Source: Gammaproteobacteria bacterium (GTDB taxonomy: Bacteria > Pseudomonadota > Gammaproteobacteria > Ga0077536). From it: 64,000 nucleotides of DNA. Numbering within the stretch: the first letter of the stretch is position 1; each line of letters opens with the position of its first letter. The DNA lies in the NCBI GenBank assembly GCA_963662545.2, contig CAXXLL010000002.1, positions 640,001 to 704,000 on the forward strand, written 5' to 3'. The notes beneath the pieces were generated by a model. The model saw nothing but the letters and a program-made list of their open reading frames with translations, did no database searches and was not told where the DNA came from. Shown here piece after piece: positions 15,787 to 62,138 of the stretch. The position numbers and the translations under genes are program-made.

Positions 15787-15917
15787 GTCCGGTTTGGGTC
15801 GTGAGCCGCCGCCTCGCGGCAGCGCAGCAATACTCTAGATTACGTCGGCAATACCCTCGTAAGCAGACATTAAGTAGCGTTTAGCTGCGTGCACATTATG
15901 AGCGTCGGCTTCCGGCC
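15787..15917 (+). repeat. Tri-modular repeat R1 (right arm displaced to 18996-19011 by IS1182)
   Basis: GGGTC 15796, GGCC 15914; central GTCGGCAATACCCTCGTAAGCAGAC module. Confidence 0.9.
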
Positions 15918-16107
15918 GAGGCCGTGTCAAAAGTCGGAATACGGTGGGGTCATGTTGAGAATACACGCGCAGACGAACGTCGGTGCCGTTCACCGGCCGC
16001 GATAACCGCCCCCTCAATCGACCGGCAAATGAAACGTTCTTCAGAACCGCCCCTGAGGCCGCCCTTGGAACTCTGAAACCGCCGGTTCTTTCAGGCGAAA
16101 GAGGGCG

Positions 16108-17537
16108 TCATACCCCCATCGCCGCGATTAAAGCGCCCGCCCCCTTGATTTGGAGAACGCGCTTCAGGTTATAAGCCAGCACGTGCAGACTCATCTCCGT
16201 ACTCACCCGTGGCAGCGTCTTCGTTAAGAAGTGCGTCGCTCCCATCCAGGCTTTCAGCGTCCCGAAGGGATGCTCGACCGTTTGTCGACGCAGTTGCATC
16301 TTCTCCGGAGCCGCGTGCAGTCGTGCCTGCATCTCGTCGAGCACATCTTCACGCTCCCAGCGTTTGACCCGACGCTCGAGACCGGTCGTACACTTCGCCT
16401 TGATCGGACAGTCCTTGCACGCCGTCGTCCAATAGACATTTAGCGTCAGCCCCTTCTCAATGCTGACGCAGCGCCATGTCAACGCTTCTCCCGCCGGGCA
16501 CCGGTATTGATCCTGCTCTGGCTCGTAGACAAAGTCTTGTTTGCCATACCGTCCTTTCTTCTTGCTTGGTGAAGTCAATGGCTTGGGCACGTAGGTGCGT
16601 ATCCCTTCATCCTCGCACGCCACGACCTCGGTTCCCGTGTAGTAACCCCGGTCACTCACCACCTCGAGATCGTCATGTCCGGTTGCGTCACGCGCCTGCT
16701 CGGCTATCGTCGCCAGATGCGCGCGGTCGCTACCCACGTTTGTCACCTCGTGCGCCACTATCAGATGGTTCTTGGACTCTACCGCCGCCTGCACGTTGTA
16801 GCCCACTATCCCGGTGCCCCGGGTCTTCATCGCGCGCGAATCCGGATCGCTCAGCGAGAGCTGCTGGTCTGGCTCAGCCAACCTGCGCTGCTCTAATGCC
16901 TTCAGACGCGACATCTCCTCTTCGAGCTGCTTCAGCTTGGCTTGTAAACCACTCACCTTCGCCTCCGGCATCGACGGTTGCGCTTGGTCGGCCTCATCCA
17001 ACTCAGCCAGGTAACGCGCTATATGCCGCTCAAGGCGCGCTTGACGCGCCTTCATCTTCGACTCAGTGAAGTTCTTGTCCCGTGAGTTCACCGCTTTGAA
17101 CTTGCTGCCGTCTATCGCCACCAGCGCTTGGCTGAACAGCTTGAGACGACGGCATACACCAATAAACTCACGGCACACCCCGACGATGCCTTTGCCGTTG
17201 TCCTTGCGGAAGTTGGCTATCGTCTTGTGGTCAGGCATCAGCCGACGCGTCAACCACATCACTTCGACGTTGCGTTGCGTCTCGCGCTCCAATCGCCGGC
17301 TCGACTGGAGGCGATTGAGGTAGCCGTAGATATACAGCTTCAACAGCGTCGCAGGGTCATAGGCCGGCCGGCCCAGCGCGCGAGGCTGATGACGCTCGAA
17401 GCCCAGGCCTTTCAGATCGAGTGCCTCGACAAACGCCTCAATCACCCTGATAGCGTTGTCTTCTGTGATGTAGTCGTCGAGTCGTTCCGGGAATAGTGTG
17501 CTCTGGGTTCGGTCTTCGCCTTCAACGAATCGCGTCA
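16108..17537 (-). pseudogene. IS1182 transposase separated from its start codon (ATG at 18931) by IS256
   Basis: SSRRLERE, AIDGSKF, DRGY and VEHPFGTLK motifs; the N-terminal MTR lies beyond the IS256. Confidence 0.85.
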
Positions 17538-18921
17538 GAGTTATTGTCAAAAGTGGTGTTCAGGCGGTTGAATCAAGCGGCGACCTGATTGACCCTTGTC
17601 ACCTCGATACCATCTTCAAATTTAACTCCAGTAATCACCTTGGCCAGGTAGTCGAATCCACGTAGGCGTCGCCAATTCTTCTGCGCACACCGCCCCAGCT
17701 TGAACATCATATGGAGCATGCCGTCCCGAGAGAGACCGCCCTTGGAGCGCCGGGTCCGGTGCCGGATCGTAGCGAAGGTGGATTCAATCGGATTGCTCGT
17801 GCGAATGCTTTGCCAATGTGGTGCCGGAAAATCATAGAACGCCAGCAACTCCTCACGGTCTTTCTGTAGGCACAGGGTCGCCTTGGGATACTTCGGTTCA
17901 TAGGTCTTGAGGAACAGCTCGAACGCCTTCTCGGCGTCGGCCTTTGTCGCGGCCTGCCAGATCGCGTGCAGGGCTTGCTTGGCTTTGGCCTGTGCCGACT
18001 TCGGTAGGCAGTTCAGCACGTTCATCGTCTTGTGCATCCAGCAGCGTTGCTGGCGGGTCTCACCGTAGACTTCCTCCAGTGCGGCCCAGAAGCCCATGGC
18101 ACCGTCCCCGATCGCCAGCTTGGGAATATTCATCCCGCGTGACTTCAATTTCAGCAACACCTCGCGCCAGCTCTGCGTGGACTCCCGCACACCATCCTCC
18201 ATCGCCAAAAAACGCTTCTCGCCTCGCTCATTGACGCCGATCACCACCAACGCACACAGCTTCGTGTGCTCCGCCCGCAGGCCACTGTAGACACCGTCCG
18301 CCCACACCTACACCCAGCGGTCTTGGTCCAATCGCCCCTCGCACCAGTCGCGGTATTCTTGCGCCCACACCTGCTTCAAGCGCGACACGGTGCTCGCCGA
18401 CAGGCCCTTCGCCTGCGGCCCCAACAAAACTTCCAGCGCAGCGCCCATTTCGCCACTGGAAACGCCCTTCAAATACAGCCACGGCACGGCCGCCTCCAAG
18501 GTTCTTGTCTTGCGCACATACGGCGGCACCAGCGCTGAACGGAAGGTCACCGGCTCGCCGAGCTTCGAACGAACCTTCGGGATCCTCACCGTCACCGGCC
18601 CCAAGCCCGTCTGCAACTGGCGTTCCGGCAAATAGCCGTTGCGAACCACACCTGCTTTGTCGTCCACCGTGCGATGTCCTGAATACTGCGCCATATATTC
18701 TGCCAGCTCGATTTCAACCGCTCGTTCAATCAGAGCACGAGCACCGTTTCTCAAGACCTCCGTCAACGGATCTGGTATTCCTTCTCGACCTGATAATTCA
18801 ACAACGTTACTCTCTCATGGTGGCGTATCCTCTTTGGTTGGCTTGCTGCTTGGTAACAACATTTCAACCAGATACGCCGCCTTTATTCAATTCGCTCAAA
18901 CACCAGATTCAGTTATAACTC
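17538..18921 (-). mobile_element. IS256-family element with inactivated transposase
   Basis: IRs GAGTTAT...TGGTG; 9-bp TSD ATCGCGTCA (17529-37 and 18922-30); QRCWMHK and RTSNPIES motifs; internal TAG at 18308-10. Confidence 0.9.
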
Positions 18922-19068
18922 ATCGCGTCATTCGGAACACCTAGGCGGGTCTTTCGATCAGTATGCACATCCTCGCAGACTTTTGACACAGCCTCGGCCA
19001 ACAGTGGACATCGAGCAATGCATTGTGGCGCCGAACTCTGTTATCGCTCCGAAGCGCGGACGAGATGC

Positions 19069-19569: not shown

Positions 19570-19580
19570 CCTAATTAAGT

Positions 19581-20965
19581 GGGTCTACGCGGATTCATGT
19601 GGGTAAATTCTGAATTAGACCAAGTGTAAACCATTGAAATCATGTAGACATTCAGAGATTTCGTATGGGGTGAAAGTGGTTTCATTTTGTGGGTAGGCTA
19701 AGGCCATGAAGAATCCCAAGTCGATCCGAGCGCTGTTTGCGTTCCCTAGTTTTACCGCCGCATCGAAATTGGTGGGCATGTTTGGTGATCGGTATGCCCG
19801 TGTGATCCAACTCAAGAGGCGAAAAAAACAGCGATCTGTTCTCACTGTGCTCACCGGTGCCGCGGGCGTTACGACAAGAAGGTGCTGCGAGTACGAGACC
19901 TGTCAGTTGCCGGATGGCGAATCTACCTGGAGTTCGAACGCTGGCGTGTCAGTTGCCGGAGGTGCGGCGGCGTGCAGGTAGAACATCTTGACTGGCTGGC
20001 AAAGAACCCTCGCTATACGCAGCGCTTTGCCATGCAGGTGGGCAAGCTGTGCCGGGACATGCCGAACCAGGCTGTCGCCGAGAGGGAACGCCTGCACCAC
20101 AGCACGGTGAAAGACCTCGATAAGCTGTACATGCAAAAGCAGGTTGAGCTGGCGGGCATGCCAGCACCCCGGGCCATCGGTATTGATGAGATCTCCATCC
20201 GCAAAGGACATAACTACCGGGTCATCGTCAGTGACCTGGATCGGGGGCGTCCTATCTGGGTCGGTGGTGAAGGTCGCAAAGAGGCTGACATCGACCTGTT
20301 TTTCCAGGCATTGGGCGAGAACAAGAGCGCTCGCATCGAACTGGCGGCGATGGACATGTGGAAGCCGTTCCGTAACTCGGTCATGAACAACGCACCGCAG
20401 GCGCGGATCATCTATGACAAGTTCCATATCATGCGCCACCTCTCAAAGGCTCTCGATGAAGTCCGGCGCCGTGAATACAAACGTCTCCGCGGCAAGGACA
20501 GGAGTTACATCAAAGGCCAGCGATATACCTTGCTCTCGCGACGCGAGAACCTGAATCTGGATGGCAGACGAGCCCTGAAAAAACTGCTCCAGGCCAACCG
20601 GCGTCTGAACACCGCCTACGTCCTCAAGGAAACCTTCGGCCAACTCTGGGACTACCGTACCGAGCGCGGCGCGCGTGCCTTTTTCGAGCGCTGGAAGGAC
20701 AGTCTGAAATGGCAGCGATTGGCGCCGTATCGCAAGTTTGCTGAGCTGATTGAATCCCATTGGGATGGCATTGCTTCCTATTGTGATGCTAAGAATAAAG
20801 TCAGTCTTGGATTGGTCGAAGGGGTCAACAACAAAATCCGGGTCCTGCAACGACGCGCCTATGGCTATCGTGATGAGGAATTCCTCAAACTGAAAATCAT
20901 TGCGGCATTTCTTCCGCCACTACCCAGAAATGCCAATATCAACCCACACGTTTCCGCGTAGACCC
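19581..20965 (+). mobile_element. ISL3-family element
   Basis: IRs GGGTCTACGCGGA / TCCGCGTAGACCC; 8-bp TSD AATTAAGT. Confidence 0.92.
19706..20961 (+). CDS. ISL3 transposase in two frames joined by a -1 shift at an A7 run (19822-28)
   Basis: IGIDE, AAMDMW, DKFHI and EGVNNKI..RRAYGYR motifs; CSHC finger follows the shift. Confidence 0.85.
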
Positions 20966-21121: not shown

Positions 21122-21252
21122 GTCGCCTTGGGGTCGTCAGCAGCCTGATTGGGGCGGTGCAGCACCTTTCAGCAACACGTCTGCTGTCCCCTCGTAAGCG
21201 GTCATTAAGTAGCGTTCGACGACGCGACTATGACGGACGGCGGCTCTCGGCC
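21122..21252 (+). repeat. Tri-modular repeat R2 (right arm at 21412-21427 after MITE)
   Basis: GGGTC 21131, GGCC 21249. Confidence 0.9.
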
Positions 21253-21411
21253 GAGGCTGTGTCAAAAGTATTTTCGAATTTTGAAAGTGGGAGAAGTTTA
21301 GCCCGATTCGTCTACCTTAGGCGGTGCGTTCCCTTAATCAATCGTGCATAACAACCTAAGTGGGGAAAATTTTCACGGCGGGCTCCATTTTTCGACTTTT
21401 GACACAGCCTC
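21253..21411. mobile_element. MITE-A (159 bp, IS1182-type ends)
   Basis: IRs GAGGCTGTGTCAAAAGT; GGCC TSD; same sequence as 34221-34379. Confidence 0.9.
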
Positions 21412-21506
21412 GGCCATTTGCAGACGTCGATCGATTTCGGATTCTGTTATTTGAGTGTCCTCTTTAGCGATGTATCTGGAACATGTTCTGAGTACAGTGC
21501 CAGTAA

Positions 21507-21714
21507 GTCTCGATATCGAACACGCGCTTGAGGCGTTGCGCCCATGTCATAGCGGTGCGGCGCTGGGCGGGCGTCTTGTCTTCGGTGCGATCGCGCGGTG
21601 GCCGTCCCCGCCCGGCCGGCGTGACGGCGGCACGATGGGCGCTGTTGGGGGCGAACACGCCGTGGAAGCGCGTCAGGTTGACCCGGGGCTTGGGCACCAG
21701 GGCGACCAGGCGCA
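21507..21714 (-). pseudogene. IS91/ISCR rolling-circle transposase C-terminal remnant
   Basis: PRVNLTRFHGVFAPNS...MTWAQRLKRVFDIE. Confidence 0.85.
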
Positions 21715-22020: not shown

Positions 22021-22039
22021 GCGCTTGGCGCCCTTTTAA

Positions 22040-23823: not shown

Positions 23824-24129
23824 GTCCGTTATGGGTCCAGGCTGTCCGAAAACTCCGAAAAATCGTTACGTGACGAAAAGTTCCCCCACTTGTTGTCCTC
23901 ATAGCAGATGAATTAGGGATCACACTGTTCGAATTGATCAAGTTGGATAACGCATCCCCCACTTTCCAAATTCGAAATTAGTTTTCGGACAGGCTGGGTC
24001 GTTAGCGGCCCCGTCGCCACAGCACTGCACTGCTAAGCATTATGTCTGCAGTACCCTCAATAGCGGTCGTCCAATAGCGTTCGGTGGCACGAGCATGACG
24101 CGCGGCGGCTGTCGGCAAAAAACGGTCAT
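23824..24129 (+). repeat. Tri-modular repeat R3 containing MITE-B
   Basis: GGTC duplicated at 23834 and 23997; body 24001-24129. Confidence 0.9.
23838..23996. mobile_element. MITE-B (159 bp), inverted relative to the other two copies
   Basis: IRs CAGGCTGTCCGAAAACT; GGTC TSD. Confidence 0.88.
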
Positions 24130-25606: not shown

Positions 25607-25608
25607 AG

Positions 25609-25751
25609 GTCCGCAAAGGGTCGTCACCCGCCTAATCGCGGCACTGCAGCACTTCTCAAGGTTACGTCTGCAATGCGCTCGTAAGTGGTCGTCGAGGTCC
25701 CTCAAGCGTCGAGTCGAGAGGGTACGGCTGCAGTCGGCCACAAGCGGCCAT
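25609..25751 (+). repeat. Tri-modular repeat R4 (uninterrupted)
   Basis: GGGTC 25618, GTCTGCAATGCGCTCGTAAGTGGTC, GGCC 25736. Confidence 0.92.
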
Positions 25752-25779
25752 CACATTCGTACAGACCAAGTTCGTCAAT

Positions 25780-26370
25780 CGTCGATGGGGGCGATAATCT
25801 TGACCATGCCGCTCCACGCCTGGCAGGTCTCGTTATCGATGTTGAACAGGCTTTGGGGCGTTGTGCCCATGTCATGGCAGCGCGTCGTTGGGCCGGTTCC
25901 TGGTCGCCGCGACGAGCGGGCGTGACCTGGGCGCGCAGCGGGCTATTCGGCGCAAAGACGCCGTGGTAGCGGATGAGGTTGACGCGGGGGTTGGGAATGA
26001 GTGCCGCGAGGCGTGCCACCAGATCGAGCGGCTCGAAAAAGACATGGGTGGTGCCATCGCGATAAGGCGTTTTGAGCGCGTATCGCACGAGGCCCTGTGA
26101 GGTGAGTGACAGGCGCTGTTCGGAGAGCGCGGGTCGGGTGATATAGCGGCACAGTCGTTCGAGTTTCTTTTGTTCCCAGGGCTCGGTGGCGACGCCAGCG
26201 TGCAACGAAAAGCCCGAGGCTTTGGCGAGTCTCTCGCCGGGCGGGTCCTGTTCGCTCTGCGCCGGCAGGGTTTGCAGGGTGAAGGCCTGGTGGCCTTGCC
26301 GTGGTCCCAGGCGAATATCGCGGCGTAATGCGACGGCTCGGGCGTATCCACGATTGATGACATGTCGGTT
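25780..26370 (-). pseudogene. IS91/ISCR transposase remnant
   Basis: GFSLHAGV, KLERLCRYITRPA, YRDGTTHVFFEPLD and YHGVFAPNS motifs. Confidence 0.88.
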
Positions 26371-26948
26371 GGACGCCTGAATAGATGCCCCAATTAAACA
26401 CCAGGTCTGGACTGTAGCGGCACATATTATTCGCCCACAAGCGGGCTCCGATCCGCTCCCCATAGGCGCCCGCTTGCTGGCGAAATACGGAGGGTCCTTC
26501 CGGCCTGGTCGAAACTCGAATGGGAGGTCAGCACTGTGATCGCATGCCCGTTCGGATCCGCCATCCGGAAATACCAGTGGCCGTACCCCAGCCGAGCGCC
26601 GATCTCTCCGGTTCGAGCCCCGCTTCCTGCAGTCGGGTTCGGTATCGTTCGAGGTGCTCGCGCTCGTGTTGGGGGATCATGCTGTCGACCGGCCCGATGT
26701 GGCCGGAATACCCGGCGTTGGAGGCTGGAAATTCTGGTAACAGGTACGCCCTATCCCCGCCGTCACCGGCGGCGGCTAACCCGTCTGTTAGAAACGATCT
26801 GAAGTAAATATACTGTGGGAGAACCGTTACGTAAGTTACGAGGAATACTTATGGCGCCCCGCCTGGAACTCGTCGACGTCGGCAGTCCGATGAAGTGGCT
26901 GGACGCTCACGGATCGCCTCGTCGAAGCACTTATCAAGGATATCGTAA

Positions 26949-27854: not shown

Positions 27855-28413
27855 ATGAAGACTTTTCCCCACCTTGAAGTCAAAGGCGACGCGGCGGCGC
27901 GCGGCGGCGCTCACGGCGAGGCGTTTCGCGAGCGGATCGAGAAGACGTTTTCGTTCTACATGGACGACCTCTTTGCGTCGAGCCCTCTGTCGGGAGCGGA
28001 GATCGAGGCGCGCGCGAACCGGATCAAGGCACTGACCGTGGAAGCCGCGCCCGACTGTGCTGCGGAAATCTCCGGGATCGCGGCTGGCGCCAATCTCGAA
28101 GAATGGAAACTCTTCGTGCTCAACGCCCGCACGGAGATTCTGAATGCGAAGGTCACCGAATGTACGGCTTTCTACTTCGCGGAATCGCGGGTGCTCGCGC
28201 AGAACTGGGACTGGGTCGAACCGCTGGAAGACCTGGCCGTCGTCATCACGCACGAAAGAGACGACGGGCGGCGATACGCAGTCTTCGTTGAGCCCGGCAT
28301 GATCGGAAAGATTGGGCTCAACAGCGATGGGATCGGGGTATGCCTAAACATTCTGTTCACGCCGCACGATTTGAGCGGCCTGCCGATCCATATCCTGAAC
28401 GGCGCGTTACTGG
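27855..28413 (+). pseudogene. C45-family autoproteolytic acyltransferase/peptidase, 3'-truncated and fused in frame to IS3 orfB
   Basis: RGGAHGE, NARTE, ECT (catalytic Cys), QNWDW and KIGLNSDG motifs; then the IS3 SDRGPQY. Confidence 0.8.
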
Positions 28414-28737: not shown

Positions 28738-28835
28738 CTCGGCCATTTGCAGATGTCGATCGATTTCGGATTCTGTTATTTGAGTGTCCGCTTTAGCGAT
28801 GTATCTGGAACATGTTCTGAGTACAGTGCCAGTAG

Positions 28836-30657: not shown

Positions 30658-30800
30658 GACCGCATTGGCCCGTCAGCGGCCCCTTCGCGGCAGTTCAACA
30701 CTGTTCTAGATCAGGTCTGCAATCCTCTCGTAAGCGGTCGTGCGGCAGTGTTCAGCGGTGCGGTTAAGGTGCAGAGCGGTAGTCGGCCAGCACCGGACAT
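30658..30800 (+). repeat. Tri-modular repeat R6
   Basis: GGCCC 30667 (variant core), GGCC 30785. Confidence 0.9.
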
Positions 30801-32012: not shown

Positions 32013-32319
32013 GAAAGCTTTGGGTCGGTAGCTGCCGAGCCACCGCAGCGCAGCACAGCTAGAGATTACGTCTGCAATGCGCTCGGAAGCGGTCGTCTCG
32101 CAGCTTTCAGTGGAGCGTTAGCTGAACAGGACGGGTCACGGCCGAGGCTGTGTGAAAACTCAAAAATACGATGACGGAAGTAAAATTTTTCCCACCAGCA
32201 CAGTAATTAAGCACCTCGAAAAGGGATCGGCATTCCAATTAGAGTCAATTTCGAGTGTAGTTCCCCCACTTTTGAAAAACGAAAATAGTTTTCACACAGC
32301 CTCGGCCATAAGCGGGCAC
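32013..32319 (+). repeat. Tri-modular repeat R8 containing MITE-C
   Basis: GGGTC 32022; GGCC 32140 duplicated at 32304. Confidence 0.9.
32144..32303. mobile_element. MITE-C (160 bp)
   Basis: IRs GAGGCTGTGTGAAAACT; GGCC TSD. Confidence 0.88.
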
Positions 32320-34111: not shown

Positions 34112-34395
34112 GCCTCCTCGCGGCAGTGCAGCATCGCTCCAGATTAAGTCTGCAATACGCTCCATAGCGGTCGTCCGGTAGCGTTCGGGGCGCGACCCTG
34201 ACTCGCGGCTGCAGTCGGCCGAGGCTGTGTCAAAAGTATTTTCGAATTTTGAAAGTGGGAGAAGTTTAGCCCGATTCGTCTACCTTAGGCGGTGCGTTCC
34301 CTTAATCAATCGTGCATAACAACCTAAGTGGGGAAAATTTTCACGGCGGGCTCCATTTTTCGACTTTTGACACAGCCTCGGCCACAACCGGACAT
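34112..34395 (+). repeat. Tri-modular repeat R9 (5'-truncated) containing MITE-A copy 2
   Basis: CTCGCGGCAGTGCAGCA...GTCTGCAATACGCTCCATAGCGGTC; GGCC at 34217 and 34380. Confidence 0.88.
34221..34379. mobile_element. MITE-A copy 2 (159 bp)
   Basis: Same sequence as 21253-21411; GGCC TSD. Confidence 0.9.
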
Positions 34396-37037: not shown

Positions 37038-37303
37038 GGCCGCAATGGGTCCAGGCTGTCCGAAAACTAATTTCGATTTTGGAAAGTGGGGTATGCGTTA
37101 TCCAATTTGATCAATTTGCGCAGTGTGGTCCCTAATTTATCTGCTATGGGGACAACAAGTGGGGAAACTTTTCGTCGCGTAACGATTTTTCGGAGTTTTC
37201 GGACAGCCTGGGTCGTCAGCGGCCTCATCGCCGCGTTGCACCACTACTAAACGTTACGTCTGCAATCCTCTCAATAGCGGTCGTGCGGCAGTGTTCAGCG
37301 GCG
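37038..37303 (+). repeat. Tri-modular repeat R11 (3'-truncated, fused to ISCR tail) containing MITE-B
   Basis: GGTC at 37048 and 37211; module 2 present. Confidence 0.88.
37052..37210. mobile_element. MITE-B copy 2 (159 bp)
   Basis: IRs CAGGCTGTCCGAAAACT; GGTC TSD. Confidence 0.9.
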
Positions 37304-37771
37304 ACTGAAGACCTAACGCCTCTTGAACGCCGAGCAGCGATGAATTGGGCGCAGCGCCTGAAGCGGGTATTCAACATCGACGTCGAGACCTGCAATAGCT
37401 GTGGCGGGCAGGTCAAGATCATCGCGTGCATCGAGGATCCTGTGGTAATCGAGAAGATTCTCACCCATATCGAGCGCAAAGAAACTTCAACAGGCGCCTC
37501 GCGTTTGCCACCGTCTCGGGGGCCGCCGCAGGCCAGTTTGTTCGCCTAATACACGGACAACCGTGCGAGCAACACTGGCAGCTGCGATACCGACGAAGCG
37601 GCAGGGTCGCTGTCGAGCCGAGGGTCGAAGAGCCCAAAAATTAGCACCTAAGTGTGAGATTCTCCGGGCTCGGCCAGCCGACACCGCCTGCAAGCGCGCG
37701 TTGACGGCTGTGCGAGCACCTGCGGACACTCGATGAAGTTGCGGAAAAGGGCGTTTGTTCGTCTTATACGC
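37304..37771 (+). pseudogene. IS91/ISCR 3' remnant with oriIS-like end
   Basis: MNWAQRLKRVFNIDVETCNSCGG..IIACIEDP..RGPP; ends AAAAGGGCGTTTGTTCGTCTTATACGC. Confidence 0.88.
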
Positions 37772-41105: not shown

Positions 41106-42789
41106 CAGGCTGTCCATAAACTCACTTTGCGGAGCACTTGACGGCTCATCCGGGCTGTTTGGTAGCGGCGTCATCACGATGCGCTGATTCTGCGCGTCCA
41201 ACAGCGTTTGAGAAACTCGACGCCAAAGTGGCGAAGGACATTCGCCGCCGCGGTCTATCCAACACCCGGAGGATGTTTCGGGAAAAAGGCGGGTTCCTAT
41301 GACTGTATCGCTTCTATGAGTGGCGCAACCCCGAGTATCGCCATCGCCCGTTTCATGTTGTACGCCAGCACGTGCAAACTCATCTCCGTACCCACGTTCT
41401 TCAGCGTTTTCATTTGGAAGTGTGTCGACCCCATCCAGGATTTCAACGTGCCGAAGGGATGTTCGACGGTCTGTCGTCGAACGCGCATGCGCGCGGGCTC
41501 TTTGTCCAACCTTGCTTCAACCGCTTCGAGCACGGCTTCGTGCTCCCAGCGGCTGACGCGTCGTTCTTTCCCCGTCGTGCACTTGCCTTTGAGCGCACAT
41601 GAACCACACGTCGATGCCCAGTAACGGTAGATTGTTAATCCGTCTTGGTGTGTTTCCGTGCGGCGCGTCAGTCGCTCTCCCGCCGGACATTCGTATTCGT
41701 CATCATCGGGCTTATAAATGAAATCCCGTTTGCCGAAGAGGCCCTTCGCCAGATTGCCCGAGGTCTGGGGTTTCGGCAGATAAGTCGTGACCCCCGCTTC
41801 ATCACACGCCAGGCTCTCCTCGCTCCTGTAGTAACCCCGGTCCGCGACAACCTCCAGGTGCTCAACACCGAGTGCTTCCTTCGCTTGCTTTGCCATGGCG
41901 GCGAGCGCCGCTCGGTCATGACCCACGTTCGTCACCTCGTGCGTCACGATCATATGATGTTTAGCGTCAACCGCCGCCTGTACGTTGTAGCCCACCATCC
42001 CCGTACCGCGCCCGCTGGTCGCCATCGAGCGGGCGTCTGGATCAGTCAGTGAGATCTGTTGGCCCGGTGCCTCAAGCATCCGGGCTTCCAACTTTTTTAG
42101 GCGCGCCATCTCCTCTTTCAGTCGGCTGATTTTATCCGCCAGTCGCTCCGTTTTGTCCTTCGCAACCGCTGCTTCCTGACGGTCAGCACTCGCCATCTGA
42201 CCCAGATACCGCTCAATGCTCTCGTCAATCTGCGCCAACCGACGCTTCAGCTTCGCCTTGGTGAAGTTCCGCTCCCGGTTGTTCACCGCCTTGAACTTGC
42301 TGCCATCAATCGCTACAAATGCCTCCGAGAATAATTCCAGCTTCCGGCACAGCATCACAAACTCCCGGCACACCAGACGAATGGCGACACCGTTGTCCTT
42401 CCTGAAATCCGCGATGGTTCTAAAGTCAGGCGCTAAGCGACCCGTCAGCCACATCAACTCCACATTGCGCTGCGCTTCACGCGCCAGCCGTCGCGATGAC
42501 TGAACTCGATTCAGGTAGCCGTATACGTAAAGTTTTAAAAGGGTTCTCGGATCGAAGCCCGGCCGACCCGCGGCCTTGGCCTCCGACTGGAAACCTAGAC
42601 CGGAAATATCCAGCTCGTCGATGAATACATCAATCACGCGCACCGCACTGTCTTCGCCGATGTAATCATCCAGTCGCTCTGGAAACAGCGTCGCTTGGTA
42701 GCGATCTTCGCCTTCAATGAATCCACTCATCAGACGATTCCTTGCGCGAAAGGTCGATTATAGATTCATGGGAGTTTTCGGACAGCCTG
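41106..42789 (-). mobile_element. IS1182-family element
   Basis: IRs CAGGCTGTCCATAAACTC / GAGTTTTCGGACAGCCTG; GGTC TSD. Confidence 0.92.
41297..42730 (-). CDS. IS1182 transposase
   Basis: SSRRLAREA, AIDGSKF, ADRGY and VEHPFGTLK motifs. Confidence 0.93.
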   Translation of the reverse strand: MSGFIEGEDRYQATLFPERLDDYIGEDSAVRVIDVFIDELDISGLGFQSEAKAAGRPGFDPRTLLKLYVYGYLNRVQSSRRLAREAQRNVELMWLTGRLAPDFRTIADFRKDNGVAIRLVCREFVMLCRKLELFSEAFVAIDGSKFKAVNNRERNFTKAKLKRRLAQIDESIERYLGQMASADRQEAAVAKDKTERLADKISRLKEEMARLKKLEARMLEAPGQQISLTDPDARSMATSGRGTGMVGYNVQAAVDAKHHMIVTHEVTNVGHDRAALAAMAKQAKEALGVEHLEVVADRGYYRSEESLACDEAGVTTYLPKPQTSGNLAKGLFGKRDFIYKPDDDEYECPAGERLTRRTETHQDGLTIYRYWASTCGSCALKGKCTTGKERRVSRWEHEAVLEAVEARLDKEPARMRVRRQTVEHPFGTLKSWMGSTHFQMKTLKNVGTEMSLHVLAYNMKRAMAILGVAPLIEAIQS

Positions 42790-43011
42790 GGTCGTAAGCC
42801 GCCCGCTCGCGGCAGTGCAGCACTGCTAGAGGTTAGGTCTGGGATACCCTCGTAAGCGGCCATTCCCTTCTCATAAAAAGCATCGCAGCGCTTGACTTCG
42901 GCTCGCGGCTAAGAGCGGTCCCGAATATAAACGGTGTTCGTCGAGAATTGCTATGCTTACAGAACTGCCCTCGGGTGAACATCCAATAAGACGATGTCGG
43001 GAGATCGGACC

Positions 43012-44884: not shown

Positions 44885-45028
44885 GTGACGGCGATTAGAT
44901 CGGAGGACGTTATTCAAAGCGTGGCGGACGCGTTGCAATACATCTCGTATTACCATCCGCCCGACTACATCGCCAACCTCGCGCGCGCCTACGAGCTCGA
45001 AGAGTCGCAGGCCGGCGTGGCCGCTTAG
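44885..45028 (+). pseudogene. fumA: N-terminal fragment of class I fumarate hydratase, cut at repeat R13
   Basis: IQSVADALQYISYYHPPDYI...AYELEES, then runs into the repeat. Confidence 0.8.
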
Positions 45029-45149
45029 GGTCGTCGGCGGCCTCCTCGCGGCACTGCAGCACTGTTTTAGATTGCGTCTGCTATTCCCTCCATAGCGGTC
45101 GTCCAATAGCGTTCAGCGGAACGTTTACAGAGCACTTCAGCTTACAGCC
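45019..45149 (+). repeat. Tri-modular repeat R13
   Basis: GGGTC 45028, AGCC 45146. Confidence 0.9.
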
Positions 45150-45362
45150 GAGGCTTTTCTTGCAACGCTCGACATTCCGATCTCGGCACCGAGCCTAGGC
45201 GGACCCGAAACGTTGGTGACGTGCCCTGCCATCACTTCGCACGCGGGACTGTCGATAGCAGCGCGCGAACGCCTAGGTGTCAGCAACGCTTTGATCCGCT
45301 GCTCGACGGGTTTGGAGGACGCTGATGAGCTGATTGCTGATTTCGCCCAAGCCCTCGGTTGA
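45147..45362 (+). pseudogene. C-terminal fragment of a Cys/Met trans-sulfuration PLP enzyme, starting at repeat R13
   Basis: APSLGGPETLV..PAITSHAGLS...LIRCSTGLEDADELIADFAQAL*. Confidence 0.8.
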
Positions 45363-47162: not shown

Positions 47163-48993
47163 GTCCGCTGTGGGTCCAGAGTGTGTGAAAACTCTGCATC
47201 AGATAAGATCACTCTTTCGGTCCTGGGGAGTCGTTGATGAGCGGGTTCATTGAAGGCGCGGACCGCCGCCAAACAACGCTGTTTCCCGAGTGTCTGGACG
47301 ATTATGTCGCTGAGGAGAGTGCGGTGCGGGTCATCGATGTGTTCGTCGATGAGTTGGATCTGTCAGGTCTGAGTTTCAGAACCGATGCGCATGAGACGGG
47401 TCGACCGGGGTATCACCCGGCGACGATGCTGAAGCTCTATATCTACGGTTACCTGAACCGGGTTCAATCGAGCCGTCGCCTGGAACGGGAGGCGCAGCGG
47501 AACGTGGAACTGATGTGGCTGACGGGTCGTCTGGCGCCTGATTTCAAGACCATTGCCGATTTCCGCAAAGATAACGGTGACGCCATTCGTCTGGTATGCC
47601 GGGAGTTCGTGATGCTGTGCCGTAAGCTGCAGCTGTTTTCGGAAGCCTTCGTGGCGATAGATGGCAGCAAGTTCAAAGCGGTAAACAACCGTGACCGGAA
47701 CTTCACGAAGGCGAAGCTGAAACGTCGGTTGCAGCAGATTGACGAGAGCGTTGAGCGGTACCTGGCGGAAATTGCAAGTGCCGACCGCCAGGAGCGTGCG
47801 GTGTCAGGTGACAAGTCGCAGCGTTTGAAGGACAAGATCGAGGTACTGAAGGAAGAGATAGGCCGCCTAAAAAAGCTCGAGGTACGGCTCGAGGAGACGC
47901 CGGACCATCAGGTCTCACTGACGGACCCGGACGCGCGCTCGATGGCGACGAGCGGCCGTGGCAGCGGCATGGTGGGGTACAACGTGCAGACGGCGGTCGA
48001 CACGAAGAGTCATCTGATTGTGGCACATGAAGTGACGAACGTAGGTCATGACCGGGCGCAACTGTCGAACATGTCGGAGAAAGCCAAAGAGGCGCTGGAT
48101 AAGAAGGAGTTGACCGTCGTTGCGGATCGCGGGTACTTCAGTGGCGAAGAGATCTTGGCGTGCGCTAAAGCCGGCATCACGACCTATCTGCCGAAACCGC
48201 AGACCTCGGGTAACCAGGCGAAGGGCTTGTTTGGCAAGCGCGACTTCATTTACCAACCCGAAGAGGATGCGTATGAATGCCCGGCCGGTGAGCGACTGAT
48301 TTACCGGTTCACCCGAGTGGAGAAAGGCAAGCAGATCCGGCGCTACTGGAGTTCGGCGTGTCCCCGCTGCCCGATCAAATCTAAATGCACAACGGGTCGA
48401 TACCGGCGCGTCAGCCGTTGGGAACATGAAGCGGTTGTTGAAGCGGTGCAGGCGCGATTGGATCGTGAACCTGACCCTATGCGTGTCCGCCGAGAGACGG
48501 TCGAGCATCCATTTGGCACGATCAAATCCTGGATGGGTTCGACCCACTTCCAGATGCGCACGCTGAAACACGTTGGTACGGAAATGAGTCTGCACGTGCT
48601 CGCTTACAACATGAAACGCGTGATGAATCTACTGGGTGTCGCTACGCTCATCGAAGCGATGACGGCATGAGACCCTCTGTGGCCTCGAAAACTCCCTGAT
48701 CCACGGCTTCACTGCCGGCTTCTGGGGCCGTTCTAAGGAATGTTCCATTAACTAACCGATCGCATTGGACCGCGAGCGCGGCCGTCGTAACCGCGCCGCG
48801 TTGCGTCTGACGAGGAGTTCTCGACGTGATTCCTCTTCATTCCGAGTTTTCACACACTCTGGGTCGGTAGCTGCCTGATCACCGCGGCGCAACGCTGCTC
48901 TAGTTTACGTCTACAATGCGCTCGGAAGCGGTCATCGAGTTGCTTTAAGCGTTAAGTCGAGAGGGTACGACGGCTCTCGGCCAAGTGTGGGCC
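47163..48993 (+). repeat. Tri-modular repeat R14 split by IS1182 (47163-47176 + 48862-48993)
   Basis: GGTC duplicated; GGCC 48979. Confidence 0.88.
47177..48861 (+). mobile_element. IS1182-family element (1685 bp), copy 1
   Basis: IRs CAGAGTGTGTGAAAACTC; GGTC TSD; CDS 47237-48670. Confidence 0.93.
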
Positions 48994-49877: not shown

Positions 49878-51121
49878 TGGTTTGGCCCCGGTATTTCGGA
49901 CCACCTAATTCGGCACGATAATGTGCTGGGAGGTGTGTCATGGGGAGAAGACAACGCTATAGCGCGGAGTTCAAAAGACAAGCACTTAGGCGAGCTGACG
50001 AGCCCGGGGTGACGGGTGCTCTGGTGTGCGAGGAGCTTGGGATCAGTACGCGACAGCTTCGGCGGTGGCAGGATTTGGTAAGTGAGCACGGGGAGAAGGC
50101 TGCGTTCCCAGGCCACGGCAAGAGCCGCGACGAGGAGATGACGCGACTCAAGCGCGAACTGAGCAAGGTCACAGAGGAGCGTGATTTTTTAAAAGAAGCG
50201 GCGAGGTACTTTGCCAGGGAGTCGAAGTGAGATACGGCTGTATCCACCGGCGGCGGCGCCAGCACTCGGTCAGGATGATGTGCGGGTTGTTGCGTGTCTC
50301 GCGTAGCGGTTACTACGACTGGTGCGGTCGTGGCGAGAGTGCGAGACAGCGCCGGGACCGGCGTCTGTTACCCCTGATCCGAGGCCTGCACCTGGAGAGT
50401 GGCGGTGTCTACGGCGCACGCAAGGTGCAACGCGAACTGGCCGAGCTCGGTGAGCCTTGCGGACGGCACAAAGTGGCCCGCTTGATACACGATGCCGGAC
50501 TCAAAGGTTGTCCGAAGCGCCGATTTCGCCGGCTTGCTGAGCGCCCGCCGAGCTACCCGGTTGCAGCGAACTTGCTCAACCAGGACTTCAAGGCCAGCCG
50601 GGTCAACGCGCGCTGGGCGTCGGATATTACCTACCTCTCGACACGCCAGGGATGGCTGTACCTGGCGGTAGTGATGGACCTCTATTCGCGACGCATTGTG
50701 GGCTGGTCGATGGACCGGCGGACCGGCCGACACCGGGTGGTGGACGCGATGAAGATGGCGCTGGGGCAACGTCAGCCGAGCGCCCCGTTGCTCCATCATT
50801 CCGACCGTGGACCGCAATACACCAGCGATGACTTCCGAGCGCTACTGGCGCGTTACGGGATCGAATGCAGTATGAGTGGTCGTGGTAGTTGTTACGACAA
50901 TGCACCGGTCGAAAGCTTTTTCGCGCTACTCAAGCGCGAGCGCATTCGCCGACGCACTTACGCTTCTCGAGAGGACGCCAAGGCTGATGTGTTCGACTAC
51001 ATCGAGCGTTTCTACAACCGATGTCGGCGTCATGGCTACCTGGACTATTCCAGTCCGGTAGACTTTGAAAGGCAGGCAGTGAAGACTTAATCAACTGGTC
51101 CGAAATTCTGGGGCCGAACCA
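49878..51121 (+). mobile_element. IS3-family element (orfA 49940-50230, orfB 50227-51090) between the outer arms of repeat R15
   Basis: TG...CA IRs; WASDITY, HHSDRGPQY and ESFF motifs; flanks GTCCGCTATG and GTCGGCCATAAGCGGCCAT; no TSD. Confidence 0.92.
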
Positions 51122-53313: not shown

Positions 53314-53456
53314 GACCACTTTGGGTCGTCAGCGGCCGAATCGCGGCAGCGGATCACCGCCCTAGATTACGTCTGCAGTGCGCTCCATAGCAGTCGTCGA
53401 GTAACGTTCACCGACGCGTTAACCGATGACGACGGCAGTCGGCCAATAACCGATAT
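53314..53456 (+). repeat. Tri-modular repeat R16 (uninterrupted)
   Basis: Modules start at 53314, 53371 and 53431; GGGTC 53323, GGCC 53441. Confidence 0.92.
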
Positions 53457-55255: not shown

Positions 55256-55561
55256 GTCTCCTTAGGGTCTAGGCTGTCCGAAAACTAATTTCGATTTTGG
55301 AAAGTGGGGTATGCGTTATCCAATTTGATCAATTTGCGCAGTGTGGTCCCTAATTTATCTGCTATGGGGACAACAAGTGGGGAAACTTTTCGTCGCGTAA
55401 CGATTTTTCGGAGTTTTCGGACAGCCTGGGTCGTCAGCGGCCTGATCGCGGCAGTGCAGCGCTAGAGACGGTTACGTCTGCAATGCGCTCGTAAGCGTTC
55501 GTCCAGCAGCGTTCGGCGGACCGTTAACCAAGGAGTTCGGCTCCCAGCCAACAGCGGTCAT
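55256..55561 (+). repeat. Tri-modular repeat R17 containing MITE-B copy 3
   Basis: GGTC at 55266 and 55429; AGCC 55546. Confidence 0.9.
55270..55428. mobile_element. MITE-B copy 3 (159 bp)
   Basis: Nearly identical to 37052-37210; GGTC TSD. Confidence 0.9.
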
Positions 55562-57798: not shown

Positions 57799-57942
57799 GA
57801 CCGCTTCGGGTCGTCAGCGGCCTTGTCGCGGCAGCGCATCACTGTTCTAGATTAGGTCTGTAATGCTCTCCATAGCGGTCGGCGAGTCGCCTTAATGGCG
57901 GCTACGGATGAGCGGTTCGGCTCTAAGCCAAGAGGACGACAT
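57799..57942 (+). repeat. Tri-modular repeat R18
   Basis: GGGTC 57808, AGCC 57926. Confidence 0.9.
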
Positions 57943-57951
57943 TCCTTGATA

Positions 57952-59648
57952 GTGTCCGTCCATAAACAGGCATTTTCTTCGATGGGCACGGAGAAATCGA
58001 GGTGTTGAAAGTAGGTTGTTGGAGCGGTAGCGGCGGTTCGGTGGGGGTCGAAGGGCTCTTCGAGCGTAATTGTGAGTACGTTCGCCGGCCGCAGAGCGCT
58101 GCAACCCAAAGTCGCCCGTTCGACGATATCGAGGAGGTCAGTTAGTGCGAGTGAACGTCGCTATTCGAGTTGATAGCGCGCGAGCAGGCTGAGGTTGTAG
58201 GCGACCACAGAAGACCACACGTAGGCTTCGAAGTGCGGCAGGCTCTTCCAGGTGCAACGTGCCAATCCGTATGCACGCTTCAGGCAGGAGATACCGGCCT
58301 CGATGCCGGCGCGGAAGTTGCGCAAGCGTCGATAGACCCACTGACTCTTGACCATGTCGGCGATCGCGAGCCCGCGCTTCTTGTGGAAGGCAACGTCTTC
58401 GATGCCTTCTGCTTTCGCCGCCCGGAGATTGTCGAGGCTCGCATAGCCGCCATCGGCGGCGACCTGTCGTGGCATCGTCCCGTAGTGTGTTCGATGCCGT
58501 TCGAGCATCGGCATGAAGCGCTGACTATCGACCGGATTGCCTCGCTCGATGACCACGTCGAGGATGAGGCCACTGCGCCCCGAAGCCAGATTGATTTTGT
58601 GTCCGTACTGAACGTCGCGCGCACCCTTTATGATGATGTCGGTATGCGGCTCGAACAAGCTCACGCACTTCTCGCTCGCGGGGACCTTCTCACCGCCGAA
58701 CACCCGCCGCTCAGTTTGCGAAATCACCTGCAGAACAAGTGTTTCGTAGTGCGCTACCTGCGCTAGCCAGTCCGGCAGTTCAACGCCGGTGACGCCCGGG
58801 CTCAGCAGCTGCTCACGTACCCTCGCTACCGCTTCCAAGGTTGAACGCGTCGCCCCAATCAAATCGCGATACAGACGTTGGCGTTGCTTCGCACCACGCG
58901 CATACCACAGCGCCCGCGCACGCTTCTTCGCCAATCGAGTGTGGTTCACGAAGCACAACTCCGGCGCGCCAGGCAACTCGCGCGCCTGTGCGAGCAGACG
59001 AACCACAACACGCACGCCATCCCACAGCAGATGACTGTCGCTCGGCGCGTGGATGGCACTGTCCGTTACCGTGCTATCAATCCGTACACGCTGTGCCGGC
59101 TCAATGCGCGTCTCTTTCGCCGTCGCCAGCAGGGCGCGATGAATAGACTCCCACGTCGATACCTGGATCGCCGAGACCACCCGCTGTAAGGCAGACTTCT
59201 TCGGACGTTCATTACCCGGCAACCGGGCGAAGGCCTGAAAGCTCGCCGAGTCCTGCAGGTGAAAGGCCAGCTCCTCGTAACTCAATTGCCGGTGCTGCTT
59301 GAGCACCGCGCAGCGCAGCACCGACTCCGCCGACAGTCCGCGTCGACCGGTGGGCTTCAAACCCCGCCGACACAGATCGTTCATGACCGGCGTGAGGACC
59401 TTGGGGTGAGCATCGAGCCACTCGGACATGCCCTGCAGCTCTCGCCCCAGGTCATGGTCAGCAAACAGCTCGTATATACTCGCTTGGGCCGTGCGTTTCT
59501 GACGCATTCCCCCTCCTGTGGTGTCGATGATTGTGTGGAAAATCAGAGGTTTGAAGTTCCATTAGATCACGACCCACCGGAGGTTTCGATCCCTTAAGCG
59601 ACAAATTTTCCTTTTTATTTCAACCGCATCGCGTTTAGGGATGCACAC
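57952..59648 (-). mobile_element. ISNCY/IS5-like element (transposase 58161-59507)
   Basis: IRs GTGTCCGTCCATAAAC / GTTTAGGGATGCACAC; TTGATA duplicated; RIDSTV, ADGGY and FRAGIEAGIS motifs. Confidence 0.88.
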
Positions 59649-59705
59649 TTGATAGCGGTCGTACGGTTATCCTATCCCTTCAATCAGCAACGGAAGGTAT
59701 TGACT

Positions 59706-60242
59706 ATGAACTGGAACGTTGCGGGAGCGATTGGTGAAGTAGTCGGGGCGGCCGCAGTCGTAATTTCCGTCATGTACCTGGCGGTTCAGATTCGCAAACA
59801 GACCGAGGAATACAGATTATCTGCTACACGCGAAATTGCCGCTCAATTCATGGACGGTTTGAAGGTTCCCATAGCCGATGAGGGTCTGTGCGAGATATAT
59901 CTGAAAGGTATCCAAAATTACAAATCGCTGCCGGAAGCAAAACGGTTAAGGATCAGTCTACTATTTCAGCATCAGATAAGAGTTATGGAGCTGCAATACT
60001 TTCACAGTAAAAAAAGGAATATTGATGCTTCATTTTTGGACTCAATAAATCGCACTTTATCCGAAATTTTGAGCTTTCCCGGCGTACAACAATGGTGGGA
60101 AACGACACACTACAGCTTTGAAGACGGGTTTCAACAACACATAGAACATTTGCTCTCGGAATCCAAAACCAAGTCGTATCCAAGTACATTCAGTACAAAG
60201 AAGAAGGCGCAAACTAATAGCGTGGGCGAGTTCGACACTTGA
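59706..60242 (+). CDS. Hypothetical protein with N-terminal TM helix (homolog of 30861-31379)
   Basis: MNWNVAGAIGEVVGAAAVVISVMYLAVQIR...PGVQQWW; lower GC. Confidence 0.75.
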   Translation: MNWNVAGAIGEVVGAAAVVISVMYLAVQIRKQTEEYRLSATREIAAQFMDGLKVPIADEGLCEIYLKGIQNYKSLPEAKRLRISLLFQHQIRVMELQYFHSKKRNIDASFLDSINRTLSEILSFPGVQQWWETTHYSFEDGFQQHIEHLLSESKTKSYPSTFSTKKKAQTNSVGEFDT

Positions 60243-60306
60243 TTGCGACCCAGGTCAAAACGCCTTTTATCGAATGAAAAGGATGCTGAGTAACGCAGCG
60301 CAACAA

Positions 60307-62138
60307 GTCCGCTGTGGGTCCAGAGTGTGTGAAAACTCTGCATCAGATAAGATCACTCTTTCGGTCCTGGGGAGTCGTTGATGAGCGGGTTCATTGAAGG
60401 CGCGGACCGCCGCCAAACAACGCTGTTTCCCGAGTGTCTGGACGATTATGTCGCTGAGGAGAGTGCGGTGCGGGTCATCGATGTGTTCGTCGATGAGTTG
60501 GATCTGTCAGGTCTGAGTTTCAGAACCGATGCGCATGAGACGGGTCGACCGGGGTATCACCCGGCGACGATGCTGAAGCTCTATATCTACGGTTACCTGA
60601 ACCGGGTTCAATCGAGCCGTCGCCTGGAACGGGAGGCGCAGCGGAACGTGGAACTGATGTGGCTGACGGGTCGTCTGGCGCCTGATTTCAAGACCATTGC
60701 CGATTTCCGCAAAGATAACGGTGACGCCATTCGTCTGGTATGCCGGGAGTTCGTGATGCTGTGCCGTAAGCTGCAGCTGTTTTCGGAAGCCTTCGTGGCG
60801 ATAGATGGCAGCAAGTTCAAAGCGGTAAACAACCGTGACCGGAACTTCACGAAGGCGAAGCTGAAACGTCGGTTGCAGCAGATTGACGAGAGCGTTGAGC
60901 GGTACCTGGCGGAAATTGCAAGTGCCGACCGCCAGGAGCGTGCGGTGTCAGGTGACAAGTCGCAGCGTTTGAAGGACAAGATCGAGGTACTGAAGGAAGA
61001 GATAGGCCGCCTAAAAAAGCTCGAGGTACGGCTCGAGGAGACGCCGGACCATCAGGTCTCACTGACGGACCCGGACGCGCGCTCGATGGCGACGAGCGGC
61101 CGTGGCAGCGGCATGGTGGGGTACAACGTGCAGACGGCGGTCGACACGAAGAGTCATCTGATTGTGGCACATGAAGTGACGAACGTAGGTCATGACCGGG
61201 CGCAACTGTCGAACATGTCGGAGAAAGCCAAAGAGGCGCTGGATAAGAAGGAGTTGACCGTCGTTGCGGATCGCGGGTACTTCAGTGGCGAAGAGATCTT
61301 GGCGTGCGCTAAAGCCGGCATCACGACCTATCTGCCGAAACCGCAGACCTCGGGTAACCAGGCGAAGGGCTTGTTTGGCAAGCGCGACTTCATTTACCAA
61401 CCCGAAGAGGATGCGTATGAATGCCCGGCCGGTGAGCGACTGATTTACCGGTTCACCCGAGTGGAGAAAGGCAAGCAGATCCGGCGCTACTGGAGTTCGG
61501 CGTGTCCCCGCTGCCCGATCAAATCTAAATGCACAACGGGTCGATACCGGCGCGTCAGCCGTTGGGAACATGAAGCGGTTGTTGAAGCGGTGCAGGCGCG
61601 ATTGGATCGTGAACCTGACCCTATGCGTGTCCGCCGAGAGACGGTCGAGCATCCATTTGGCACGATCAAATCCTGGATGGGTTCGACCCACTTCCAGATG
61701 CGCACGCTGAAACACGTTGGTACGGAAATGAGTCTGCACGTGCTCGCTTACAACATGAAACGCGTGATGAATCTACTGGGTGTCGCTACGCTCATCGAAG
61801 CGATGACGGCATGAGACCCTCTGTGGCCTCGAAAACTCCCTGATCCACGGCTTCACTGCCGGCTTCTGGGGCCGTTCTAAGGAATGTTCCATTAACTAAC
61901 CGATCGCATTGGACCGCGAGCGCGGCCGTCGTAACCGCGCCGCGTTGCGTCTGACGAGGAGTTCTCGACGTGATTCCTCTTCATTCCGAGTTTTCACACA
62001 CTCTGGGTCGATAGCCGCCTCATCGGGGCAGGGCAGCACCACCAAGCGACACGTCTGGATTACTTTCGAAAGCGGCCATCCTGCTTCTGTTGGCATCACC
62101 TCTGAGGGTGACTTCGGCTCTCGGCCAAGTGCCGTCGT
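60307..62138 (+). repeat. Tri-modular repeat R19 split by IS1182 (60307-60320 + 62006-62138)
   Basis: GGTC duplicated; GGCC 62123. Confidence 0.88.
60321..62005 (+). mobile_element. IS1182-family element (1685 bp), copy 2
   Basis: Same IRs and identical protein to 47177-48861; CDS 60381-61814. Confidence 0.93.

Follow-up and report, generated by a model that had tools for sequence, protein, structure and literature searches.

Why do ten transposable elements in one stretch of bacterial DNA all lie within copies of the same repeat, and always at one of two points in it? The question is raised by a 64,000-nucleotide stretch (hereafter the window) from a Gammaproteobacteria bacterium (assembly GCA_963662545.2), which corresponds to C2:640001-704000 of a 5.58-Mb, three-contig assembly, C2 being contig CAXXLL010000002.1. 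In this window, four insertion sequences (ISs) and six miniature inverted-repeat transposable elements (MITEs) of IS1182 type interrupt a repeat of approximately 125 nucleotides (nt) that recurs along an array. A preliminary description of the window divided the repeat into three modules, assigned elements whose ends start with CAG to module 1 and those whose ends start with GAG to module 3, and regarded both as specialised parasites of the array. The answer reached here, which is held with good confidence, is that three IS1182-family ISs and their MITEs probably select an interrupted palindrome, and that two lineages split the two arms of the repeat according to the centre of that palindrome.

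The ten elements were recovered with the coordinates, ends and duplications first described, including a TAG left tip on the MITE at 55270, and a BLAST census of the window returned exactly these ten as IS1182-type elements (C2 655918-702005). All ten carry 17-bp inverted ends and 4-bp target duplications; four contain open reading frames (ORFs) of 477-480 aa, and the remaining six, of 159-160 bp, contain no genes. The CAG-ended elements (three ISs and three copies of MITE-B) duplicate GGTC in module 1, the left arm of the repeat, and the GAG-ended elements (one IS, two copies of MITE-A and one of MITE-C) duplicate GGCC in module 3, the right arm. In window coordinates, they are as follows:

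15918..18995, minus strand: ISg, a GAG-ended IS1182-family IS of 3078 bp including a nested IS; 425 bits on the NCBIfam IS1182 model; transposase ORF at 16108-17550; duplication GGCC (15914-17 and 18996-99), interrupting the right arm of the repeat copy that starts at 15794.
17538..18921, minus strand: IS256-family element (Transposase_mut, split ORFs) nested in ISg.
21253..21411: MITE-A, 159 bp, with ends GAGGCTGTGTCAAAAGT identical to the right end of ISg; GGCC, right arm.
23838..23996: MITE-B, 159 bp, with ends CAGGCTGTCCGAAAACT identical to the right end of ISc; GGTC, left arm.
32144..32303: MITE-C with GAG tips, 160 bp; GGCC, right arm.
34221..34379: second copy of MITE-A, 100% identical to 21253-21411; GGCC, right arm.
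37052..37210: MITE-B; GGTC, left arm.
41106..42789, minus strand: ISc, a CAG-ended IS1182-family IS of 1684 bp; 448 bits; transposase at 41297-42730; GGTC, left arm.
47177..48861, plus strand: ISc2, a CAG-ended IS1182-family IS of 1685 bp; 466 bits; transposase at 47234-48670; GGTC, left arm.
55270..55428: MITE-B with left tip TAG; GGTC, left arm.
60321..62005, plus strand: second window copy of ISc2, identical to 47177-48861; GGTC (62006-62009), left arm.

Members of the IS1182 family are typically about 1.6-1.7 kb long with inverted repeats of about 16-17 bp, and the single-ORF elements of 1684-1685 bp with 17-bp ends agree with these dimensions. The family assignment made at the outset is borne out by scores on the NCBIfam IS1182 model (NF033551) of 466.5 bits for ISc2, 448.3 for ISc and 425.4 for ISg, against a cut-off of 270, and by the Pfam domains DUF772, DDE_Tnp_1 and DDE_Tnp_1_6 on all four window ORFs; genome-wide, 17 loci exceed the model cut-off. 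The transposase of ISc2 is 76% identical to that of ISc and 59% identical to that of ISg. The three IS and three MITE families together have 53 full-length copies in the genome: ISc2 is present in 14 copies, 12 of which are 100% identical, ISc in one copy and a half copy, ISg in one, MITE-A in 10 plus a degenerate one, MITE-B in five, and MITE-C in 21 (18 CAG-tipped, two GAG-tipped and one with a deleted end). The MITEs are short, non-coding and multi-copy and share ends and duplications with the resident ISs, the ends of MITE-A matching the right end of ISg, those of MITE-B the right end of ISc and those of MITE-C the ends of ISc2; the interiors of MITE-A and MITE-B are 58-60% identical over the same length. 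Judged from sequence, ISc, ISc2 and ISg are members of the IS1182 family and the MITEs are derivatives of such elements, and the intact ORFs together with the 12 identical ISc2 copies suggest recent activity. A fourth IS1182 lineage occurs at C2 1713459-1715080 (404 bits, ends TATTGTGTTGAAAAAC, tip TAT, duplication ATCC), outside the arrays and in a palindrome-like site.

Extension of the flank comparison to the whole genome reveals a single target. In the notation used below, a hyphen separates the duplicated centre from its neighbouring bases. Every CAG-ended copy (38 of 38) lies at G-GGTC and every GAG-ended copy (13 of 13) at T-GGCC, two further copies being degenerate, and all 51 well-formed full-length insertions share one flanking motif, entered at the same nucleotide. 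The genome from which the elements had been cut out by script holds 54,488 GGTC/GACC and 34,418 GGCC sites; insertion at arbitrary copies of these tetranucleotides, which the flank logos of all copies might have disclosed, was not seen. Modules 1 and 3, which had been taken as different targets, prove to be two copies of one interrupted palindrome of about 28 bp, ATGTCCGCTnnK-GGYC-GnnAGCSGCC, with insertion at its centre; they differ consistently at two places, where module 1 has G (position -1) and T (third central base) and module 3 has T and C. Read from the cassette side inwards, the consensus of CAG-type insertions is ATGTCnGCTnnG-GGTC-GTnAGCnGCC (37 unique sites) and that of GAG-type insertions is AnGTCnGnTnnT-GGCC-GnnAGCCGAC (11 unique sites). 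In the CAG-type logo, -1 G, GGTC, +1 G, +6 C and -8 C are each present in 37/37 sites and +8 G in 36/37; similarly, -1 T, GGCC, +1 G, +6 C, +8 G and -8 C are each present in 11/11 sites of the GAG-type logo. Positions -4, -5, -6, -8 and -10 can pair with +4, +5, +6, +8 and +10 in 73-100% of sites, which makes each of these two modules an interrupted palindrome with the duplicated tetranucleotide in the middle. Module 2 has a half-site only; its GGTC, present in 84 of 105 repeats, is never filled (0/84), which extends to the genome what had been noted in the window.

At two filled sites, paralogous empty sites carry a single GGTC/GACC where the filled copy has two, which proves the 4-bp duplication; for GAG-type elements, GGCC being self-complementary, the boundary between duplication and inverted repeat was set by uninterrupted repeats with a single GGCC. 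Unique flank pairs were found for 37 of the 38 CAG-type copies and for 11 of the 13 GAG-type copies, and such copies are taken to be independent insertions. A scan of the element-free genome with 22 motif positions, allowing at most one mismatch, found 137 sites, compared with 17 in a shuffled genome, and recovered 48 of the 51 insertions. Among these sites, 35 of 69 with G-GGTC are filled, by CAG-ended elements only, 13 of 40 with T-GGCC are filled, by GAG-ended elements only, and none of 28 off-type sites is filled, so that the two target specificities proposed earlier stand for this genome. When each element is excised in silico, the repeat model matches across the junction at 47 of the 53 sites (45 at E <= 5e-18 and two weakly), and the six without a match still carry the arm sequence, as solo arms or within a variant repeat. 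Outside the 125-nt repeat, four of 18 solo on-type sites are filled; the full repeat is thus not required.

With respect to the asymmetric left arm, ISc2 lies in one orientation over the other by 12:2 (binomial p = 0.013) and MITE-C by 16:2, a bias that is suggestive only, because the arrays have a common history even though the flanks are unique. Contigs of four public sequencing runs over 46700-49300 contained no bridge across an empty site, a result that is uninformative since the contigs break at the multi-copy IS. One metagenome contig (window 47176/48863) connects the repeat side, or right flank, with the left IS end, in the orientation opposite to that of the window.

The correspondence between the ends of an element and the tetranucleotide that it occupies is complete among full-length copies in this genome. 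The table of end type against site reads 38/0/0/13 (Fisher p = 2e-12), or 37/0/0/11 on unique flanks (p = 4e-11), and partial elements with one intact end follow the same rule in seven of eight cases. Within MITE-C, whose members have interiors that are 80-87% identical, tip and target are exchanged together: the 18 copies with CAGAC/CAGAG tips lie in GGTC, and those with GAGGC tips (two full and one partial) lie in GGCC. From these data it could be argued that the first three to five bases of the inverted repeat (CAGRS versus GAGGC) directly set the tetranucleotide that is attacked, for example through contacts in the strand-transfer complex, in which case a change of tip would retarget an element whatever its transposase.

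Relatives in other genomes speak against such a code. The three transposases were aligned and used to search one genome per species, which returned 79 loci, mostly in Gamma- and Betaproteobacteria (Woeseiaceae and other metagenome-assembled genomes, Pseudomonas, Halomonas and Methyloglobulus), and both ends were parsed in 62 related loci. Counted by eye, elements tipped CAG/CAG occur at GGCC in 24 loci and at GGTC/GACC in 10, those tipped GAG/GAG at GGCC in two and at GGTC/GACC in six, and those tipped GAG/CTG at GGCC in none and at GGTC/GACC in six; all four combinations (CAG with GGCC, CAG with GGTC, GAG with GGCC and GAG with GGTC) are therefore found outside this genome. GAG-tipped MITEs of one congener (G001) duplicate GGCC at L110, L115 and the L112/L113 pair and have GACC/GGCC at L116, and a GAG-type IS in the same genome duplicates GAAC; in G009, the duplication of a CAG-type IS is GGCA, within a perfect palindrome. 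The rule is broken outright by a GAG-tipped MITE in G-GGTC in a second congener (G002, L109) and, in the present genome, by a GAG-tipped fragment at C3 2018397 that adjoins GACC. In the transposase tree, the class of duplication is clustered, with eight changes against a shuffled mean of 19.4 and 0/500 shuffles as low; ISc and ISc2 fall in a GGTC-rich clade, and ISg lies elsewhere. The transposase lineage is accordingly read as determining the accepted centre, and the tip as a mark of which transposase moves the element, not as a universal target code; a direct role of the tip in target choice is improbable. The earlier proposal that end type picks the tetranucleotide thus holds for full-length copies in this genome and fails elsewhere, and the comparison of transposase phylogeny with target that had been suggested alongside it came out in favour of a link.

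The same relatives show to whom the palindrome belongs. Among 49 unique related loci with a perfect 4-bp duplication and flanks of at least 20 nt, the duplication is GGCC in 25, GGTC/GACC in 21 and another sequence in three; a further six related loci have mismatched duplications. Their 98 half-sites carry A at +4 in 54, G at +5 in 56, C at +6 in 80, G at +8 in 91 and C at +10 in 78, which yields a half-site nnnAGCnGCC, the same as in the arms in this genome. The 125-nt repeat model was matched at only one of 83 related loci (L031). Because the half-site is shared and the repeat is not, the palindrome preference belongs to the IS1182 clade, and the elements described here, whose families use solo arms as well, are palindrome specialists of a wider clade and not the array specialists that they had been thought to be. 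A looser search for the palindrome motif in the related loci, with up to two mismatches, was uninformative (501 matches versus 325 in shuffled sequence).

Ends, duplications, target motif, partition between lineages and recurrence of the motif in other genomes can be read from the sequences themselves, and a mechanism that would account for them may be outlined as follows. ISc, ISc2 and ISg, co-resident and each encoding a DDE transposase, would move not only themselves but probably also, in trans, the three MITE families with the same 17-bp ends. The transposition complex, presumably a symmetric transposase assembly that recognises double-stranded DNA, would pick an interrupted palindrome of about 28 bp, (A)TGTCnGCTnnK-GGYC-GnnAGCSGCC, and cut the strands 4 bp apart at its centre, whereby the central tetranucleotide would be duplicated. 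The preference for the palindrome would be inherited from the wider proteobacterial IS1182 clade, and its presence twice in each repeat of about 125 nt, as left and right arm, would direct nearly all insertions to the arrays. ISc, ISc2, MITE-B and CAG-tipped MITE-C would take G-GGTC-G, and ISg, MITE-A and GAG-tipped MITE-C would take T-GGCC-G, with the centre and position -1 as the likely discriminating bases.

A stem-loop target would be an alternative to duplex DNA, given that IS1272, also of the IS1182 family, targets inverted repeats (PMC5678879); that article refers to Siguier et al. for palindromic targets as a trait of the IS1182 family and draws a pathway whose only duplicated part is the loop that separates the repeat arms. 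IS1272 and TnSha1 thus resemble the present elements in transposase family and in having an inverted-repeat target, and loop-only duplication matches the 4-bp centre found here. However, IS1272 is reported to replace the stem-loop without duplication and to have targets with no common sequence, whereas the present elements keep the palindrome, duplicate 4 bp and have a strong consensus and a poor hairpin. A hairpin or cruciform reading of the arms was dropped on account of poor DNA folding, and the stem-loop model of IS1272 is consequently unsupported here.

Several observations weigh against the palindrome-and-lineage explanation or limit its reach. Sequence recognition of duplex DNA is favoured over a stem-loop only by default, from folding of 104 unique 30-nt sites in which the mean z was -0.05 to -0.54 and the duplication lay in a loop with at least four pairs in 26 of the 104. 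Filled and empty sites show only weak position differences, uncorrected over about 60 tests, and the two GAG-tipped exceptions named above (L109 and C3 2018397) do not respect the partition. The pattern is taken from standing copies, and selection against insertions elsewhere could have sharpened it. Moreover, the motif in this genome is also constrained by the host repeat, and the positions read by the transposase rest mainly on the logo from other genomes. Finally, the nested IS256-family element replaces the first residues (N-terminus) of the transposase of the sole ISg copy, and present-day mobilisation of MITE-A should not be assumed; this nested element (query 1621-3004) matches about 17 dispersed genome copies, mostly outside arrays.

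If specificity were weak, any GGTC or GGCC being acceptable and the arms merely harmless places where insertions survive, the accessory, IS-rich nature of the arrays and the high occupancy of the sites would be explained without a target sequence. This is very improbable, since the motif is entered at one and the same nucleotide by all 51 well-formed copies, the GGTC of module 2 in the same harmless repeat stays empty throughout, and the half-site recurs in unrelated contexts of other genomes. Other ISs in the same arrays are also unrestricted: a 1.7-kb IS5-like element (window 57950-59649; DUF772 and DDE_Tnp_1, 448-aa ORF), whose transposase gene is matched about 50 times genome-wide, 23 of these matches being full-length identical BLAST blocks, has CTAGC-like insertion sites and served as a control, being inside the palindrome motif in 0/23 copies.

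The repeat that hosts these insertions gives about 120 nhmmer hits in the genome, grouped on C2 and C3 into about 11 strand-consistent clusters, with arrays at C2 613-749, 1620-1641 and 2569-2588 kb and C3 355-379, 887-931 and 2543-2567 kb, and smaller clusters. Its copies are co-oriented and separate diverse metabolic genes, so that, as with attC sites, gene cassettes in arrays are divided by repeats of one orientation; outside this genome, the repeat was found in the same genus only, among 40 relatives searched. The window holds 16 copies between 15794 and 63131, all on the plus strand and spaced 1-5 kb apart:

15794..15918, plus strand: right arm filled by ISg.
21129..21253, plus strand: right arm filled by MITE-A.
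23994..24118, plus strand: left arm filled by MITE-B.
25616..25740, plus strand: both arms empty.
30665..30789, plus strand: both arms empty; left arm GGCCCG, not GGGTCG.
32020..32144, plus strand: right arm filled by GAG-tipped MITE-C.
34112..34221, plus strand: copy without left arm; right arm filled by MITE-A.
37208..37332, plus strand: left arm filled by MITE-B; right arm degenerate.
42787..42911, plus strand: left arm filled by ISc.
45026..45150, plus strand: both arms empty.
48859..48983, plus strand: left arm filled by ISc2.
53321..53445, plus strand: both arms empty.
55426..55550, plus strand: left arm filled by MITE-B.
57806..57930, plus strand: both arms empty.
62003..62127, plus strand: left arm filled by ISc2.
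63007..63131, plus strand: both arms empty; the copy nearest to the family consensus.

Pairwise comparison of flanks indicates that the left arm is more than an insertion target. Among pairs of left arms with identical outer flanks, seven of nine have only repeat-level inner identity (0.70-0.83, with a baseline median of 0.72), and among pairs with identical inner sides, nine of 11 have unrelated outer flanks; these recurrent breakpoints between paralogous cassettes make the GGTC centre also a junction of cassette exchange. The same comparison found no such homology breakpoints at the right arm. A histogram of duplication end-points against repeat coordinates was too noisy and was replaced by this pairwise test. 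In or beside the arrays, two genes are found as a pair: a Xer/IntI-like tyrosine recombinase, below every curated cut-off (174-187 bits on TIGR02249, cut-off 265, with similar scores on Xer models), and an IS91-family Y2 transposase (423-430 bits on NF033538). A 2.83-kb element that encodes both is present inside the arrays in near-identical form at C3 6584-9421, C3 920803-923640 and C2 623520-627523 (L001-L003), and its right end, ...CCCTTAAC, is followed by the AnnAGCGGACAT half-site of the palindrome. The repeat does not read as a canonical attC: no IntI is found at cut-off, and the consensus fold of the whole repeat is weak and lacks covariation, RNAalifold over 15 copies giving -4.9 kcal/mol with 12 pairs and no compensatory change.

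It could be proposed from the breakpoints, the gene pairs and the half-site at the end of the 2.83-kb element that the IS1182 elements are themselves placed by the Xer/IntI-like recombinase or the IS91-family transposase, the tetranucleotide being a crossover core, but this is scarcely credible, given that each IS has its own intact IS1182 transposase and 12 of the 14 ISc2 copies are identical, that the same 4-bp duplications and half-sites occur at the 49 loci elsewhere, that no integrase or IS91-type transposase was found in the 2.5-kb flanks of related ISs (0/83 loci), that the right arm is hit by GAG-type elements yet has no breakpoints, and that elements are found in both orientations. 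With transposition by IS1182 transposases retained as the preferred explanation, a role of the left-arm palindrome in cassette exchange may still be entertained: as a tentative suggestion, possible and rather doubtful, it might be where an undescribed cassette-array system (run by the recombinase and/or the IS91-family Y2 transposase) crosses over or cleaves, with CAG-type IS1182 elements inserting at the exchange point. If so, these elements would compete with, block or piggy-back on cassette exchange, and IS1182 flanks could be used to probe for such exchange sites in other genomes.

Other features of the arrays may be recorded. Directly beside four repeat copies in the window are partial Y2_Tnp (IS91-type) genes and a common stretch of 60 nt (25702-26463 on the minus strand, 21409-21708, 28738-29234 and 30593-30652). 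A cassette of about 2 kb is present in three arrays (C2 1620.5-1624.3 kb, C2 2578.5-2582.2 kb and C3 910.0-913.7 kb); one of its copies has ISc2 reversed at the same GGTC, and its left homology limit falls inside the repeat near ...TAGATTAC-GTCTGCA.

Insertion into host palindromic repeats is known from IS1397 and ISKpn1 in bacterial interspersed mosaic elements (BIMEs), from ISPpu9 and ISPpu10 in repetitive extragenic palindromic (REP) sequences and from the IS1111-attC group in integron attC sites; these elements are members of the IS3 and IS110 families and use different chemistries. The likeness of the present elements to IS1397 and IS1111-attC is one of behaviour only, in that a mobile element lies inside another repeat family with nucleotide precision. 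In contrast to them, the transposases here are of the IS1182 family, not of the IS110 (DEDD) or IS3 family, and two co-resident lineages of a DDE clade divide near-identical sites of one repeat. Similar in build is ISPse1 of Paracoccus seriniphilus, an IS1182-family element (PMC3281130) that measures 1653 bp and has 16/16 repeats and a direct repeat of 4 bp; the corresponding values here are 1684-1685 bp, 17 bp and 4 bp. The part of that source consulted mentions neither a target motif nor MITE partners for it. Full-text literature searches returned no description of IS1182 elements in a repeat of this kind, of such elements dividing two sites of one repeat, or of the repeat itself.

Palindrome targeting by the IS1182 family is already known, and the present case is a large and informative new example. 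Target choice in the family is poorly defined, the print record found stating only that some members prefer palindromes, and the genome offers a natural data set of some 109 candidate sites, roughly half of which are filled, in which two related transposases distinguish sites that are two bases apart, one MITE family has had tips and target swapped together, and module 2 provides an unused half-site control. Simple plasmid assays could put the sequence rules of target capture directly to the test. For annotation, roughly half of the left arms are split by the insertions, and studies of the arrays must therefore remove the elements first; likewise, the apparent modules of the array should be read as two copies of one palindrome.

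Among the remaining contents of the window, a search of positions 15000-64000 against Rfam gave no family at gathering score. IS3-family (rve) transposase genes at 27855-28706 and 50227-51090 and an ISL3-family transposase gene at 19882-20961 also lie within the array, and the stretches 28414-28713 and 50798-51097 are identical.

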